IMG/VR virus record: IMGVR_UViG_2534681933_000025
From: a virus
Taxonomy: Duplodnaviria > Heunggongvirae > Uroviricota > Caudoviricetes
Length of the DNA: 46,697 bases
Strand: one strand, 5' to 3'
The notes under the pieces are model-generated. The model was not told the DNA's origin, searched no databases, and saw only the letters and a program-made list of their open reading frames with translations. Made by a program: the position numbers and the translations under genes. Each line of letters opens with the position of its first letter. The first letter of the stretch is position 1. Below are positions 2,794 through 18,050 of the stretch, piece after piece.

Positions 2794-5458
2794 TTGCATA
2801 TTCCTTAGCCCAGCGGGGCAGTGATAACGTCTTAATAGCTGGCCATTCATCGGTATTGAGGCAGTCAGCCAGGGTTCGCAGATTGCGGTGATATTCCAGC
2901 TGACCTGCCAGTTTTGCTTCTTCGCCCATCATGAAAATTTCAACCGGATAACGTCCGCATTCAATAGTTGTGCTGGCAACCAGAAAAACGAAAGTTGGCT
3001 GCACTCCAAACTGTGCTTCATAACCGTCACTGTAGAATGCATCCTGAACGTGATAGCGGTAGTCGTAATAAGCGGTTTTGAATCGTTGAATATCCGCCGT
3101 AGTTTTCACGTCCATGATCCAGTGAAATTCAGGGATAATTTTGTCCGGACGGCACCGACACAAAATTGCTGTTTCAGGATCTTCCCAGTAAATTGATGAT
3201 TCAGCGTGTCCGGCGCTTTCAACAAGCCATTGCCCCAGCGGCAAAGCCATAACGCTCTGATACATGAGTTCAATTTTCCGGCCTTCTTCGGCAGTGATAA
3301 CCGTTTTTCCTGTGCTTGCGCATTCCCTCAGAAACGCTTTCTCTTCTTCTTTTCCGGAGTTTGTCCGGCGGTTAAATTCAGGTGCTACGATAAAGCGGTT
3401 ACTGAATTCTTCCGGCTCAAGTACCCGGCAGTGGAAAGCGGTTCCTAAATCGAGCGTTTTTGTCTTTGTGGTGTCCACGGGGGCATTTTTACGCCACAAA
3501 TACAGTGCCGGAGTATCAGCAATGTCATCGAGCTGAGACTTACTGACACCGGGACCCGCGTGGTAATTCTCATTCGAAATTCCGTAATAAATACCTGGCT
3601 CTATGTCTTCTACGATTACGGGATCTGCGACTTCGCCAGTTTCATCACTGCAATCGCGATGCGGATCGCTGCCAGCATTCTCATTGTGCGGATGTTCAGC
3701 GCCTTCCATTTCCTCCGGATCTTTTTCCTTAGCTTCAACCTGATTCTCTTCACCGAATGTTTCCTGGTATGTTGCGTCGCCCATCACCGCGCCACAATCA
3801 GGGCAGTTGCCGCCACCGCTCTGACCGCAGGCGGTGCAGACTTTTTCCGGTTCCTGTTGCGCTACTGGTTCGGATTGTTTCGTTTCTGGCTCGTTTTGTA
3901 ACGCATTTGGGCTGTTTTGTTCCGCTTTTTGGTCGTTCCGTTCCGATTCATGCTGGTTCTGGTTCACAGAATCGCGAGTCTGGATCCCCTTGACCCATTT
4001 CGGATCATTAGGGTCGCTAATCCCCTCAACAAATTCACCACGCGATACAGCAAGTAACTTATCGGCGCCAGGCTGGCTGATATTGGCTGCCTGCATAATT
4101 TTGTTTACTTCGTCAGCGGTGACTTTTACTTGGTTAGCGGAACTCACCTGCGACTGAGCATCCAGCGACTGCGCGTTCTGGCCATGTTCAGTTGTATCCG
4201 GTTCCATTGTTTCAGTTGTTGCCTGTTCACCTGCCATTGCGTCAGATGGTTGTGGTTTTTCTTCTTCTGTTTCACGCTCAGTAACCACCTCGCGGTTAAT
4301 TTCTTCCAGGATATCTTTTTCCGGTGTATGCCGGGCAGCTGTGAGAGTTTCCTTGCTGGGGTTCTCGTGATCAGTTTCCGTCAAATAGGCGTTGATATAC
4401 CCCTGAAGGCGTCCCGGGTAGTGATAAAATTCAGGGTGTGCGCTTCGGATAAGTGCAAAAATAGCGGCGCGGGAATAGTCCAGAATACCCGGGGTTGCGC
4501 GAAGTGCTGCGGACCATTCTTTGAACGGACTTTCTCTTTTCAGGACGATTTCTTTTGCGCGACGATAAACGCTGCCCGGAATTTCATAAATATTAAAATC
4601 CATCGGAAGTGTGGCTGCTGCAATCTCCACATCCAGCGTATCGAAGGTGTGTACTAAATTCGGATTGCGATCGGTTTTGTTCCCGCCACCGGCATTTGCA
4701 CCGGAAGCCGTACGGGTGATACGCGAAACACGATTTCCTTTCATCCACTCTTTTGTCAGCAGACCCCGATCAGTGTAGTCAGCGTCCAGGTATGCCTCGA
4801 AAAAAGCAGTTATCAGTCCCAGGTCTGAATTACCGGGATTAGGGAAAACTTTGTCAGTGTCGCGTGCCAGTTTATGAAGGTCGCGAATCTCCAGCGGGTC
4901 GAGCAGCTTTGTGTTGTGGGAAATGGCCAGGGCAGTAACAGCCGGCAGTTCTTCCGCCCGTGCTATATGTAATGCCTGAAGTTCTTCCCGTGCAACGTGC
5001 GTTACTGGTTTTTCGCTGCCGTGTTGCGCAAGCCAGCGAATGGGCAGCTCCTGACCAGAAACCGGCAGGAGCATATTCTCCTCAATCTCCGTCATGTCTT
5101 CGCCGTTGACGTTGGTATTGTCAGTACTGGCTGGTTTCTCCTGCACGGAGGGAGAGGGCGCGATAAATACCATTGTAATGCCATCTTCCCCGCCTTTTTC
5201 GTATCGGTTGCAGAATTCGGTATCAAACACGCCTTCAGGTGGAAGGTCATTCACAACGGGTAAATGGACGCGAACGGGTTTTTTAAAGTCGTCTTCATCA
5301 TAATCGTTGTCATCCATTGCGGTAATGCAGCGGGAGATGGCAACAGATAATTTTTTTGCTGTAGTCCAGTAAAAACCACCTTTAATTCCCAGACGTTTTC
5401 TGACTTTGTCATTTTTTGCTTCGCAATATAGCGCAAATTCTTCTTTATCAGTGCTCAT
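2786..5458 (-). CDS. recE: RecE exonuclease VIII
   Basis: 890 aa; C-terminal two-thirds recognisable as Rac RecE (e.g. ...[26 protein letters not shown]...RWAKEYAND); N-terminal region appears divergent. Confidence 0.85.
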
Positions 5459-5924: not shown

Positions 5925-6413
5925 TATCGCGTCCTCAACAATGAATTTTGTGATGCGGTGCCTGGTGCCTCCAGGTGACGTTAACCAGTTAACAATTAAC
6001 GCCGGATACAGAGAATCCACCCATAACACTGTTTTTGGTTTTAACTGTTCCGCGTGCGCTGAGCCGCATTCACCGCATCACAAAATTCACTTTAAAAAGG
6101 GCGGCAGAGCAGCCACGGAGTAAAACTGATACCGCCAAACGTCACCAGAAAATTGATAACAGAGGGCGTTGCAGCGGGGTTGTCACTTAAGCGTATGGTC
6201 AACCTGACAACCCGGTGTCCTCAACGGGGGAAGGGATAACCCCGCCATACTTACCGCCGCGCCATTTCGCGGATTGCCACAACCAGAAGCGCACGGTCGA
6301 AGAAATTTAACGACAAGACTTATATGCAAAGGGATCTCGCCGTGCGCTTTCGTGTTATGCCCTGACTTTTCAGGGTAAATTAACCTGTGGAAACCTGTTT
6401 TTACTGGCGCTAA

Positions 6414-6647
6414 TCAGTTAGCGTTTCTGGCTAACCAGCGATGCGCGGCAGCTTCGGTTTTAAACGTTTTACTTTTGGTATACGTCATCGCGGTAAACGT
6501 GCCGTCCTGATTGGGAAACACGCCACATACCAGAGATTCGTTGTTGCCAAGCTCGATAGTATCCATGCTGACCTCATTTCCCCTTAACGCTGGGGTAGCG
6601 GAACAAAAACCTGCTGCATAGTTATTAAAGTTGAACCCTGCCGTCAT
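6414..6647 (-). CDS. Hypothetical protein downstream of repressor in leftward operon
   Basis: 77 aa ORF, no recognisable motif; position equivalent to early-left genes. Confidence 0.4.
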   Translation of the reverse strand: MTAGFNFNNYAAGFCSATPALRGNEVSMDTIELGNNESLVCGVFPNQDGTFTAMTYTKSKTFKTEAAAHRWLARNAN

Positions 6648-15764: not shown

Positions 15765-16124
15765 ATGCGTATAGAGTTTGTTTTGCCTTATCCGCCGACG
15801 GTGAATACTTACTGGCGACGTCGTGGCAACACATATTTTGTATCAAAAGTCGGTGAGCGTTATCGCCGTGATGTGGCACTAATTGTTCGCCAGCAGCGGT
15901 TGAAATTAAACCTGTCCGGACGGCTGGCGATAAAGATTATTGCAGAGCCACCAGATAAACGTCGTCGTGACCTGGACAATATCCTGAAAGCACCACTGGA
16001 TGCGCTGACGCATGCCGGACTTCTCATAGACGACGAGCAGTTTGATGAAATCAATATTGTGCGCGGTCAGCTCGTTTCTGGTGGGCGGCTGGGGATAAAA
16101 ATCACAGAACTGGAGTGCGCATGA
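15765..16124 (+). CDS. rusA: RusA Holliday junction resolvase
   Basis: 119 aa; characteristic RusA residues (…RRDLDNILKAPLDALTHAGLLIDDEQ…); classic nin-region position. Confidence 0.85.
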   Translation: MRIEFVLPYPPTVNTYWRRRGNTYFVSKVGERYRRDVALIVRQQRLKLNLSGRLAIKIIAEPPDKRRRDLDNILKAPLDALTHAGLLIDDEQFDEINIVRGQLVSGGRLGIKITELECA

Positions 16125-16789
16125 ATAACCAGTATTTACAGTTTGTGCGTGAGCAGCTCATTATCGCCACCGCTGATTTGAGTGAGGCAACAAAAGGTCA
16201 GCTTGAAGCCTGGCAGGAGAATGCCATGTTCGATACAGGGCGTTACAGGAGAAAAAAAATCCGGTACAGAGATGAGGTGACCGGAAAAATGATAACGCGG
16301 GATAATCCACCAATCCCGGGAAAGCAATCGCTGGCGAAGGTGACATCAATTCCTCTGGTCAGTCCGGTTGAGTTTTCGACATCATCGTGGCGGCGGGCTG
16401 TTCTGTCTCTTGAAGAACATCATAAAGCCTGGTTGTTGTGGTGTTACAGCGAGAGCATTTGTTGGGAATATCAGATCGCGATAACACAGTGGGCGTGGAA
16501 TGAATTTAATACTCAATCTGGTACCAGAAAAATTGCAGGGAAAACGCAGGAACGCCTGAAAAAATTAATCTGGCTGGCGGCGCAGGCAGTAAAAGCAGAA
16601 CTTTTTGGTGGGGAAGGTTATGAATACCAGGAGCTGGCATTACTGGCGGGAGTGACAACCAAAAACTGGTCCAAAACATTTACTGGCCACTGGGTTGCAA
16701 TGAAACACATTTTTCACCGGCTGGATAATGAGGCTTTATTGTTCGTGACGATAACACGTTTAAAACAAAAGGCGGCATTTTCACAGTAA
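16121..16789 (+). CDS. Late-gene antiterminator Q-like protein
   Basis: Position between rusA and late promoter/terminator; ATGA overlap with rusA; family assignment by synteny only. Confidence 0.5.
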   Translation: MNNQYLQFVREQLIIATADLSEATKGQLEAWQENAMFDTGRYRRKKIRYRDEVTGKMITRDNPPIPGKQSLAKVTSIPLVSPVEFSTSSWRRAVLSLEEHHKAWLLWCYSESICWEYQIAITQWAWNEFNTQSGTRKIAGKTQERLKKLIWLAAQAVKAELFGGEGYEYQELALLAGVTTKNWSKTFTGHWVAMKHIFHRLDNEALLFVTITRLKQKAAFSQ

Positions 16790-16793
16790 AGTA

Positions 16794-16822
16794 TTGCAAA
16801 AGTAGATTAAAAGGCATATATT
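16794..16822 (+). promoter_or_regulatory. Late promoter (PR-prime-like) TTGCAA-17-TATATT
   Basis: Near-consensus hexamers immediately downstream of Q stop and upstream of terminator. Confidence 0.55.
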
Positions 16823-16874
16823 TCATGCAAATCTGATATTTTGCCGATTTTGTACGTGATGGCAAAGTAGAAAA

Positions 16875-16897
16875 ACCCGCCGCTGAGCGGGTTTTTC
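16875..16897 (+). terminator. tR-prime-like intrinsic terminator
   Basis: ACCCGC-CGCTGA-GCGGGT hairpin followed by TTTTTCTGTT, about 50 nt downstream of the late promoter. Confidence 0.65.
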
Positions 16898-17050
16898 TGT
16901 TCCCGGAATTCTGTGGCTATCCAGAAAGCTCATGGAAAGAGGAGAAAGGCAATAATTTATAACAAAATCTTAAAGATCGCCTTGTATACTATTAGTTTTG
17001 TAAATATTGTGTATTTTGAGTATTGCAGGATAACCCTGTGACGAAGTTAG

Positions 17051-17230
17051 TGTAACAACACTTTTGCTCTACGAGTTTCGCCAGCCTCCCCCAGTGGCTG
17101 GCTTTTTTATGTCCGTAGCGTCAAAGCAGCAATGGCGCTGGGGCGTCGTGCAATTGGCGTTGAGCTGGAGAGCGGGCGTTTTGAGCAGACGGTCAGGGAA
17201 GTTCAGAATGTAGTCAGTCAGAACGGATGA
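17051..17230 (+). pseudogene. Possible 3-prime remnant of a DNA methyltransferase gene
   Basis: Open frame without plausible start, ending ...KAAMALGRRAIGVELESGRFEQTVREVQNVVSQNG*, resembling the C-terminal LGRxxIGxE motif region of N6/N4 DNA methyltransferases. Confidence 0.3.
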
Positions 17231-17270
17231 TATTGCAGAATTAGTTACGTACCGTTATTATCCTGCGCCC

Positions 17271-17346
17271 GGCCCTTTAGCTCAGTGGTGAGAGCGAGCG
17301 ACTCATAATCGCCAGGTCGCTGGTTCAAATCCAGCAAGGGCCACCA
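17271..17346 (+). tRNA. tRNA, anticodon CAU (Met or lysidine-modified Ile2)
   Basis: Cloverleaf folds by hand: acceptor GGCCCTT/AAGGGCC, D-stem GCTC/GAGC, anticodon loop CTCATAA, T-arm GCTGG-TTCAAAT-CCAGC, 3-prime CCA. Confidence 0.85.
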
Positions 17347-17353
17347 TCACATA

Positions 17354-17430
17354 CCGCCATTAGCTCATCGGGATAGAGCGTCAGCCTTCGAAGCTGGCTG
17401 TGCGGGGTTCAAGTCCCCGATGGCGGTCCA
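17354..17430 (+). tRNA. tRNA-Arg, anticodon UCG
   Basis: Acceptor CCGCCAT/ATGGCGG, anticodon stem TCAGC/GCTGG with loop CTTCGAA, T-arm CGGGG-TTCAAGT-CCCCG, CCA end. Confidence 0.8.
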
Positions 17431-17443
17431 TTATCAGCATCAT

Positions 17444-17520
17444 GCGTTGTTAGCTCAGTCGGACAGAGCAATTGCCTTCTAAGCAATCGGTCACTGGTTC
17501 GAATCCAGTACAACGCGCCA
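17444..17520 (+). tRNA. tRNA-Arg, anticodon UCU
   Basis: Acceptor GCGTTGT/ACAACGC, anticodon stem ATTGC/GCAAT with loop CTTCTAA, T-arm ACTGG-TTCGAAT-CCAGT, CCA end. Confidence 0.85.
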
Positions 17521-18050
17521 CACCACACTTATCTGCCCTGACTCTCTTTTGCGGGCTTTTTATTACAGGAAAGACACCGGACAGTGAAATGTTAAATGCC
17601 TCACAATTCAGGTAGTTGACTGTTGCCTGACATGCTGAGCGTTTGTTAAAAAAATCCTGCATGATGAATCCCCCTGGGCGGCGGGGCATAATGACAGATG
17701 TTTGGTTGCGTATTGTATAGGCAAGTTGCGGATTCTGTCTGGTCATTGCAGAATTCACCGGGAGGCACCCGGCATCATGCTGTATACAGAGATTAGGCAT
17801 ATATCCAGGCTCCTCATCGCAGGAGCCTTTTTACATGCAAAAAAAGCCCGAGTAGGTTCGGGCAACAGCATGAGATACTTGCATTGTCATTTTTATCGTG
17901 TGGATTTTAACCAGGGTTTATAAGGCTGCGCAACTGCGCGGCCTTTTTCGTATTGCGGGCTGTAGTCTTCCTTCTGTCATTGTCCTGTAACTTCCGGACT
18001 TCAGCCCGCCCCTTATCTGACTCACAACATTATCCCGGCCGGGAGGATTC

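Follow-up and report, generated by a model that had tools for sequence, protein, structure and literature searches.

A tRNA trio and a probable convergent pair of small RNAs at a toxin-less late-region cargo site of an Escherichia coli O55:H7 prophage

What lies between the last transfer RNA (tRNA) gene and the esterase gene of a lambdoid prophage when no toxin gene stands at the place where Stx-converting phages carry theirs? The question is raised by a 46,697-nucleotide stretch of Caudoviricetes DNA (IMG/VR record IMGVR_UViG_2534681933_000025), the whole of which we call the window, where a cluster of three tRNA genes ends at position 17520 and a nanS-p-like esterase gene starts at 18051. 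An initial annotation had described the roughly 530 bp between them as an empty stx-type insertion site with hairpins and without any open reading frame (ORF). We read it differently and with high confidence: the locus is very probably the late-region cargo (“moron”) site of a lambdoid prophage of E. coli O55:H7 located beside ttcA, in a toxin-less haplotype of the type found in prophage Sp9 of the O157:H7 strain Sakai, with the tRNAs, a small RNA (sRNA) of the STnc100 family and a convergent anti-sRNA of the EcOnc03 type. The gene order would be Q, PR' with two tR'-type terminators, a methylase remnant, a tRNA promoter, ileZ(CAU)-argN(UCG)-argO(UCU), about 39 bp, the STnc100-family sRNA (+), the EcOnc03-type RNA (−), a plus-strand terminator, the nanS-p-like esterase gene and the lysis genes. 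The arrangement itself is already known: the tRNAs came with 933W, the sRNA pair and EcOnc03 with Tree et al. 2014, and STnc100 is a family of Rfam.

Both flanks of the interval match the stx2 locus of phage 933W by blastn, so that the homology to Stx phages proposed at the outset holds. A first block (window 16874-17561, 933W locus 4001-4683, 90.5% identity) begins at the first tR'-type terminator, takes in the tRNAs and ends at a weak terminator after argO, and a second one (window 17601-18103, 933W locus 6025-6518, 83.5% identity) runs from 46 nt past the stxB stop codon into the esterase gene L0105. The weak terminator, a hairpin with a T-run at 17535..17557 (+), is homologous to the [quoted passage not shown] of 933W, and its fold is poor (−6 kcal/mol, z = −0.34). 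Block boundaries and a junction alignment place the cargo position at 17562..17600, about 39 bp of filler that is identical in Sakai Sp9 and whose counterpart in 933W is 1341 bp long, comprising the stx2 promoter, stxA and stxB. The two hairpins noticed initially are real, at 17807-17828 and 17922-17945 on the plus strand, each followed by a T-run; a third, absent from that annotation, lies at 17863-17846 on the minus strand.

The first of these hairpins belongs to an sRNA gene. The segment 17630..17838 (+) matches the STnc100 family (Rfam RF02076) with 175.6 bits against a gathering score of 47 and over its full length (1-206/206), and the terminator at 17807..17833 (+), returned by the terminator scan, is the 3' stem of the Rfam consensus structure. 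Members of the family are at the same place in 933W (207.7 bits, 3' of stxB), Sp9 (175.2 bits) and phi296 (158.3 bits); in 933W the gene and a paired anti-sRNA, there AsxR with 88.1 bits, occupy the stretch from stxB to L0105, and Sp9 has such a pair as well. [quoted passage not shown] EcOnc27 corresponds to sRNA103 of EDL933, which overlaps STnc100 and whose overexpression raised fimZ and espA transcripts; single-nucleotide polymorphisms inside EcOnc27 are among the features predictive of haemolytic uraemic syndrome, and STnc100 has been detected in outer-membrane vesicles of Stx-producing E. coli.

Facing it on the minus strand, at 17839..17898, is an EcOnc03-type anti-sRNA of 56-60 nt with a U-tail, made up of a variable 5' seed (AAAAAUGACAAUGCAA), a shared core (GUAUCUCAUGC) and the terminator hairpin found by scan at 17863-17846; its fold reaches −13.9 kcal/mol (z = −2.4). 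The 5' variable region, AAAUGACAAUGCAAG, is identical to that of EcOnc03 (Tree 2014 Fig. S4) and to Sp9. The Sp9 RNA, AAATGACAATGCAAGTATCTCATGCTGTTGCCCGAACCCACTCGGGCTTTT, was reported at 56/54/51 nt and is destabilised without Hfq (Tree et al. 2014 supplement, PMC4104026); it was the third most abundant unannotated Hfq-bound sRNA of that study, and the window RNA differs from it by one base, in the terminator loop. In the same work (PMC4104026), convergent sRNA pairs were placed in the moron site 3' of PR' in Sp3, 4, 5, 9, 10, 11, 15 and 17, the short RNAs having about 42 nt in common at the 3' end and 14-18 differing nt at the 5' end. The window RNA has these family features, namely a length of 51-60 nt, a conserved 3' part of about 42 nt with a terminator, a variable 5' part and convergence with a plus-strand sRNA. 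For both RNAs, the 3' end falls on a terminator.

A candidate −10 element of the anti-sRNA promoter, TAAAAT, is placed at 17904..17909 (−) by its position relative to the 5' end; it is invariant across 118 loci of the AgvB, AsxR and EcOnc03 types, and conservation in all three alleles extends over the 75 nt that precede the anti-sRNA upstream. Further on comes the second of the hairpins noticed initially, a conserved intrinsic terminator before the esterase gene (17922..17950, +), with 10 pairs, 7 of them G-C, according to the scan, and supported by its fold. The window, Sp9 and 933W do not differ in its hairpin at 17922-17945, which overlaps the −35 region of the anti-sRNA. Natural variants of the hairpin, which concern one position across all loci and a second one in AgvB loci, form G·U wobbles in the plus-strand RNA and C·A mismatches in the minus-strand RNA. 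This element would be a plus-strand terminator shielding the esterase gene in the lysogen and overlapping the anti-sRNA promoter.

How common is such a toxin-less slot, and does it go with a particular anti-sRNA? A pattern built on the conserved parts matched at least 120 IMG/VR contigs; in the cargo counts that follow, the reference loci and the window are included. Among the matches listed, we found only three seeds, each nearly invariant: that of AgvB in 61 contigs, that of EcOnc03 in 43 (3 of them with a single change) and that of AsxR in 16. All 16 AsxR-type loci with argO have a gap of about 1370 bp containing stx2, and all 37 EcOnc03-type loci with argO have a gap of 73-78 nt. As for the AgvB type, 47 of the 61 lack the plus-strand block pattern, 12 have an empty slot and 2 a gap of about 1390 bp; AgvB-type loci may have a different plus-strand partner. 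The sub-variant of the window, with the loop CCTACT, occurs at least 15 times. Among the matches listed, the seed of the anti-sRNA thus tracks the cargo, AsxR being found with stx2 and EcOnc03 with none, and the toxin-less state is the normal partner of the EcOnc03 seed.

One has to consider whether the interval could nevertheless be what it was initially taken for, an empty stx insertion site or the scar of a toxin loss with nothing but hairpins in it. There is indeed no toxin gene between argO and the esterase gene, as had been read at first sight, homology to the stx2 locus of 933W is seen on both flanks, and an interval of 530 bp is also what stx-negative Traversvirus phages such as phi296 have. 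The arrangement of an Stx-converting prophage, with stxA and stxB between argO and the sRNA pair, is not found here. Emptiness, however, does not describe the interval well: only the filler of about 39 bp takes the place of the cassette, and the sRNA module also found 3' of stxB in Stx2 phages such as 933W makes up about 450 of the 530 bp. The filler itself has no significant similarity to stx2 in Smith-Waterman alignments, whether to the 1347-nt cassette on both strands (P = 0.31 against shuffles) or to the 107-nt left junction with the stxA upstream and start region (P = 0.22 against shuffles); by eye it recalls the ribosome-binding/start region of stx2A, a resemblance we rejected as a deletion scar, the alignments being no better than shuffles. 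No scar was thus found by alignment with Stx sequences, and the same filler or gap in Sp9 and in 37/37 EcOnc03-type viral contigs bearing argO, among the matches listed, points to an old, stable haplotype rather than a recent loss. We give the empty-site explanation only a slim chance. The chance is smallest for the idea that small phage proteins, rather than RNAs, are the products of the interval. The statement that it contains no ORF was right in that PGAP annotates no coding sequence between the last tRNA and the esterase gene, and too absolute in that mechanical frames of 103 aa (−) and 94 aa (+) exist; translations match PHROG families of unassigned function (phrog_27294, 4.7e-20; phrog_35554, 3.9e-15), and PHANOTATE called three short ORFs in the phi296 counterpart. 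In 933W, though, these two frames fall to 65 and 51 aa, the sequence going on in other frames via indels of 1, 2, 5 and 6 nt, and the longest ATG-to-stop ORF (17450-17800, −) is antisense to the tRNA gene argO and the STnc100 gene. Conserved non-coding DNA on which ORFs were called in many phage records would yield such PHROG families; phrog_27294, phrog_24488, phrog_35554 and phrog_23494 all match translations of the tRNA and sRNA DNA at 17450-17923 and, for want of conserved frames in 933W, resemble artefacts of ORF calling on genes for non-coding RNAs.

If the interval does encode RNAs, the minus-strand one could still be AgvB, the sponge that acts against GcvB and derepresses dppA and other GcvB targets. 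An Rfam search would say so, with 56.2 bits for AgvB (RF02702) against a gathering score of 56, and both RNAs begin with 5' CGAUAA and have core and terminator in common, the seed being nearer to AgvB than to AsxR. Yet the bona fide EcOnc03 of Sp9 itself scores a similarly borderline 56.6 bits as AgvB, which shows that the RF02702 model cannot separate the two alleles. Where the AgvB consensus has AACAACACAACAAU, a CA-rich mimic of GcvB targets (CACAACA in Tree 2014), the window has AAAAAUGACAAUGCAA, a seed identical to that of EcOnc03, an RNA in its own right for Tree et al. We screened the 5' regions by RNAduplex against 21 Hfq-dependent sRNAs of MG1655, with shuffled-seed controls and with AgvB-GcvB and AsxR-FnrS as positive controls. 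The AgvB 5' region ranked GcvB 1/21 at −19.9 kcal/mol (next −12.7), and that of AsxR ranked FnrS 1/21 at −10.4 kcal/mol (next −8.1); with the window RNA, GcvB pairing came to −11.5 kcal/mol, no better than with shuffled seeds (P = 0.59), and the best partner, SgrS, did not stand out (−12.3 kcal/mol, z = −0.8). Membership of AsxR does not fit either, with 44 bits for RF02703 against a gathering score of 63, FnrS outside the top six predicted partners and no stx2 in the slot. An AgvB identity thus appears highly improbable to us, and the minus-strand RNA, as its sequence indicates, is a member of the family that is not AgvB by function.

Several points weigh against the reading as a toxin-less cargo site with a working sRNA pair. 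The −35 element of the anti-sRNA is weak (3/6), and the EcOnc03 seed has no standout partner among the 21 core sRNAs, so that “anti-sRNA” action is assigned by analogy. On the plus strand, there is no good sigma-70 match before the Rfam start, leaving the 5' end and promoter of the STnc100-family RNA undefined; the 5' end may be near 17590-17600, and the reported size of EcOnc27 (235/247 nt) would put it at the edge of the conserved block, so that the RNA may be processed from a longer transcript. The evidence of expression for both sRNAs comes from Sakai orthologues; for the plus-strand RNA, it is for EcOnc27 and EcOnc28 of Sakai that Hfq-associated expression was shown. Finally, no advantage of the tRNAs is apparent from codon use, the structural late genes being below the early ones, as detailed further on. 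A TTGACT at 17616, tried as the −35 of the STnc100-family RNA, was discarded for want of a usable −10 at the right spacing.

What, then, might an EcOnc03-type RNA do? CLASH recovered hybrids of EcOnc3 and EcOnc28 in vivo, and its supplements list about 85 EcOnc3-mRNA hybrids, with a Gene Ontology enrichment for cation and iron homeostasis (mntH, fieF, bfr). In a full-text literature search, EcOnc03 came up in Tree 2014 alone, the CLASH paper naming EcOnc3 in its supplements only. EcOnc03 is an abundant, widespread RNA with an invariant seed and without a validated target.

The same supplements contain hybrids of both AgvB1 and EcOnc3 with ECs4425, which is eptB, and a literature search returned no paper linking eptB with AgvB, AsxR or EcOnc03. 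The family core GUAUCUCAUGC (window 17868-17878, −) is perfectly complementary to positions −2..+8 of eptB, a stretch that spans the start codon, overlaps the site of MgrR and is the place of the hybrids listed by CLASH. Duplexes with eptB were computed on short segments with shuffles, full-length folds against 165 nt of eptB having been discarded for their giant interior loops (GcvB giving −72 kcal/mol). They came to −18.8 kcal/mol for the window RNA (P(shuffle) 0.042), −18.8 for AgvB (0.027) and −21.9 for AsxR (0.005), next to −21.5 for MgrR, the validated repressor with the overlapping site (0.006). We would tentatively suggest, as a proposal that we hold to be somewhat doubtful, that the EcOnc03 type is a functionally distinct third allele, with a sharply conserved seed for neither GcvB nor FnrS and inherited only with toxin-less slots, and that in addition the shared core may occlude the start codon of eptB, which codes for the MgrR-repressed phosphoethanolamine transferase acting on Kdo. 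If this were true, every prophage with the module would adjust lipopolysaccharide modification whatever its seed. New biology could come from the target of EcOnc03 and from this possible shared eptB site.

Upstream of the sRNA pair, ARAGORN run over the whole window finds exactly three tRNAs, all on the plus strand, and the Rfam tRNA model (RF00005, gathering score 29 bits) accepts each of them, so that the trio CAU/UCG/UCU read downstream of Q in the initial annotation stands. These are ileZ (17271..17346, anticodon CAU, 72.5 bits), argN (17354..17430, tRNA-Arg UCG for CGA/CGG, 55.9 bits) and argO (17444..17520, tRNA-Arg UCU for AGA/AGG, 71.7 bits). With 0 mismatches over 76 nt, 5 over 77 and 2 over 77 to their 933W namesakes, in a block that is 90.5% identical, they are the ileZ-argN-argO cluster of Stx phages, as had been supposed. 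The UCG anticodon of the second tRNA, flagged as needing verification, holds: the loop reads C-U-U-C-G-A-A, the homologues of 933W and phi296 are called alike, the traced mismatches, in the anticodon and T arms, do not disrupt stem pairing, and the fold passes in both predictors. The first gene is named differently by different sources, the identical gene being a tRNA-Ile for PGAP, the 933W annotation describing ileZ as a reader of AUA and ARAGORN giving Met because it reads the anticodon alone. Its acceptor stem has C4-G69 and C5-G68, as in E. coli tRNA-Ile2, and ileZ is most likely a lysidine-modified tRNA-Ile2 reading AUA. Unlike the intact argN of the O55:H7 prophage, the Sakai Sp9 copy (Sp9 locus 2656-2735) has no anticodon arm and is not called as a tRNA.

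Do these tRNAs serve the late genes? Codon usage, proposed at the outset as a check for an enrichment of late genes in AUA/AGA/AGG/CGA, does not set the late genes apart. Per 1000 codons, early and lysogeny genes have AUA 8.7, AGA 9.3, AGG 5.2 and CGA 6.9, and the nine genes of the lysis module AUA 11.8, AGA 9.6, AGG 10.7 and CGA 9.6; both sets exceed the nanS-p-like gene taken with the terminase, head and tail genes (AUA 3.9, AGA 4.3, AGG 4.9, CGA 5.3). For stxA2 of 933W, the values are 47 for AUA and 19 for AGA. The gene most in need of these tRNAs in Stx phages, stx, is missing here, and the residual demand is that of small early and lysis genes, not of structural ones.

The genes on either side are those expected from the initial annotation, Q upstream and a nanS-p-like gene downstream both being recognised by their Pfam domains. 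The gene of the late antiterminator Q (16121..16789, +, 222 aa) matches PF06323 (Phage_antiter_Q, 299.8 bits) and is a “bacteriophage antitermination protein Q” for PGAP in the identical O55:H7 sequence. Directly after it, a consensus scan gives a candidate PR' (TTGCAA-17-TATATT, 16794..16822, +), positioned as the PR' of 933W, although its sequence is not homologous to it, homology beginning only at 16874. Two intrinsic terminators read from the sequence follow: a first one of the tR' type (16876..16897, +, CCCGC-CGCTGA-GCGGG then T5), which aligns with the [quoted passage not shown] of 933W (933W locus 4003-4025), and a second one (17080..17108, +, GCCAGCC...GGCTGGC then T6), homologous to 933W locus 4206-4234. 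Between them and the tRNAs are the 3' remnant of a DNA methyltransferase pseudogene (17117..17230, +; [quoted passage not shown] in PGAP) and a putative tRNA promoter (17233..17261, +, TTGCAG-17-TATTAT), which lies inside a block 90% identical to 933W and would be the homologue of the element annotated there as “pT; putative tRNA promoter”. Downstream, the esterase gene (18051..19997, +, 648 aa) has the domains DUF1737, SASA (PF03629) and DUF6645, is homologous to L0105 of 933W and is annotated as NanS in phi296.

A PR'-like promoter followed by a tR'-type terminator about 50 nt further on (16794-16897) would give a short transcript, the positional equivalent of the StxS sRNA of Stx phages (PMC7547250); the terminator portion alone is homologous to 933W, the 5' portion and Q being of another type. 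At the other end, the esterase gene has an intrinsic terminator on the minus strand directly adjoining its stop codon (window 19997-20074), with a weak Rfam match to Esr41 (−; 29.6 bits, the gathering score being 102; E = 0.016); a diverged sRNA of the Esr41/PasA type may be encoded there, at the same relative position.

As for the origin of the locus, positions 17200-18100 are 100% identical to E. coli O55:H7 RM12579, DEC5A and TB182A and to strain FDAARGOS_946, and a contiguous arrangement covering at least 80% of this query is present in at least 577 of 5426 complete E. coli genomes. The RM12579 prophage adjoins ttcA, with intR, xisR, recET and dicB to one side and genes for a lambda-like head and tail to the other. 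In its identical sequence, PGAP annotates a tRNA-Ile, two tRNA-Arg and the methyltransferase fragment, and leaves the gap between the last tRNA and the esterase gene blank. Compared with RM12579, the window is shifted by 1 nt from about 19998-20134, after the esterase gene, until about 23432-23944, before a DUF1441 gene, where the shift is cancelled; the nine genes between these two points are intact at offset −1, so that the source of the window is not RM12579 but a close relative of it. The related AsxR targets the product of fnrS (MG1655 1409129-1409250), and this gene is found immediately upstream of ynaL-dbpA-ttcA, at a distance of a few kb from the attachment site of the prophage; the proximity is probably a coincidence.

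The locus could work as follows. In the lysogen, transcripts from PR' would end at tR', the tRNAs would be made from their own promoter, and each sRNA would run from its own promoter to its own intrinsic terminator; for the near-identical copies of Sakai Sp9, expression and Hfq dependence have been shown (Tree et al. 2014, PMC4104026). Upon induction, by analogy with lambdoid and Stx phages, RNA polymerase modified by Q would read on past all these terminators and reach the genes for the esterase, lysis and morphogenesis. Additional decoders for AUA, CGA/CGG and AGA/AGG would be supplied by the tRNAs. The anti-sRNA would act by Hfq-assisted base pairing, as AgvB and AsxR do, through a seed that differs from both that of AgvB (anti-GcvB) and that of AsxR (anti-FnrS).

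For annotation, this means that a 530-bp gap left blank by RefSeq in O55:H7, the progenitor lineage of O157:H7, yet holds two Hfq-binding RNAs known from enterohaemorrhagic E. coli (EHEC), and that automated Rfam labelling would misname the EcOnc03-type RNA as AgvB. It also means that the “stx slot” is composite, the toxin cassette being one optional insert upstream of a conserved sRNA pair.

How does the site compare with systems already described? The stx2 locus of 933W and Sakai Sp5 has the same order of tRNAs, plus-strand sRNA, convergent anti-sRNA, terminator and esterase gene, with 90% identity in the tRNA block and 83% in the sRNA block; it differs by its 1341-bp stx2AB cassette and its AsxR-type seed, where the window has no cassette and an EcOnc03-type seed, and the Q/PR' module of 933W is unrelated in sequence to the window upstream of 16874. 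AgvB (EcOnc01a/b, RF02702; Sp10 and Sp17) shares the 5' CGAUAA, the core, the terminator, the invariant −10 and the minus-strand position in the moron slot; it differs by its CACAACA mimic of GcvB targets, the window seed lacking it and having a predicted GcvB pairing at background level. PasD, PasA, PasC and Esr41 of prophages of EHEC and enteropathogenic E. coli (EPEC) are likewise Hfq-binding sRNAs encoded in the intergenic regions around a prophage esterase gene, and for PasD of EPEC a structural homology to STnc100 has been reported (Pearl Mizrahi 2021, PMC8550237; Zhu, Shabalina and Storz 2026 preprint). PasA is about 2 kb from PasD2, beyond the esterase gene, where the window has only the minus-strand terminator and the weak Esr41 match; as RNAs of 17521-18050, PasA, PasC and PasD were set aside, the published PasA and PasD fragments being unlike this interval by inspection, with no formal search run, and PasA mapping past the esterase gene. 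A further system described before is the moron-site locus of Sp9 of O157:H7 Sakai (ileZ3-argO3, EcOnc28, EcOnc03, ECs_1781; PMC4104026). Its argN is degraded where that of the window is intact, its methylase, at the same place, is full-length where the window keeps a 3' remnant only, and the two Q genes differ in length (669 bp in the window, 531 bp in Sp9); from 17521 to 17955, however, the window is near-identical to the interval between argO3 and ECs_1781, with the same filler, STnc100-family RNA, EcOnc03 seed and third terminator.

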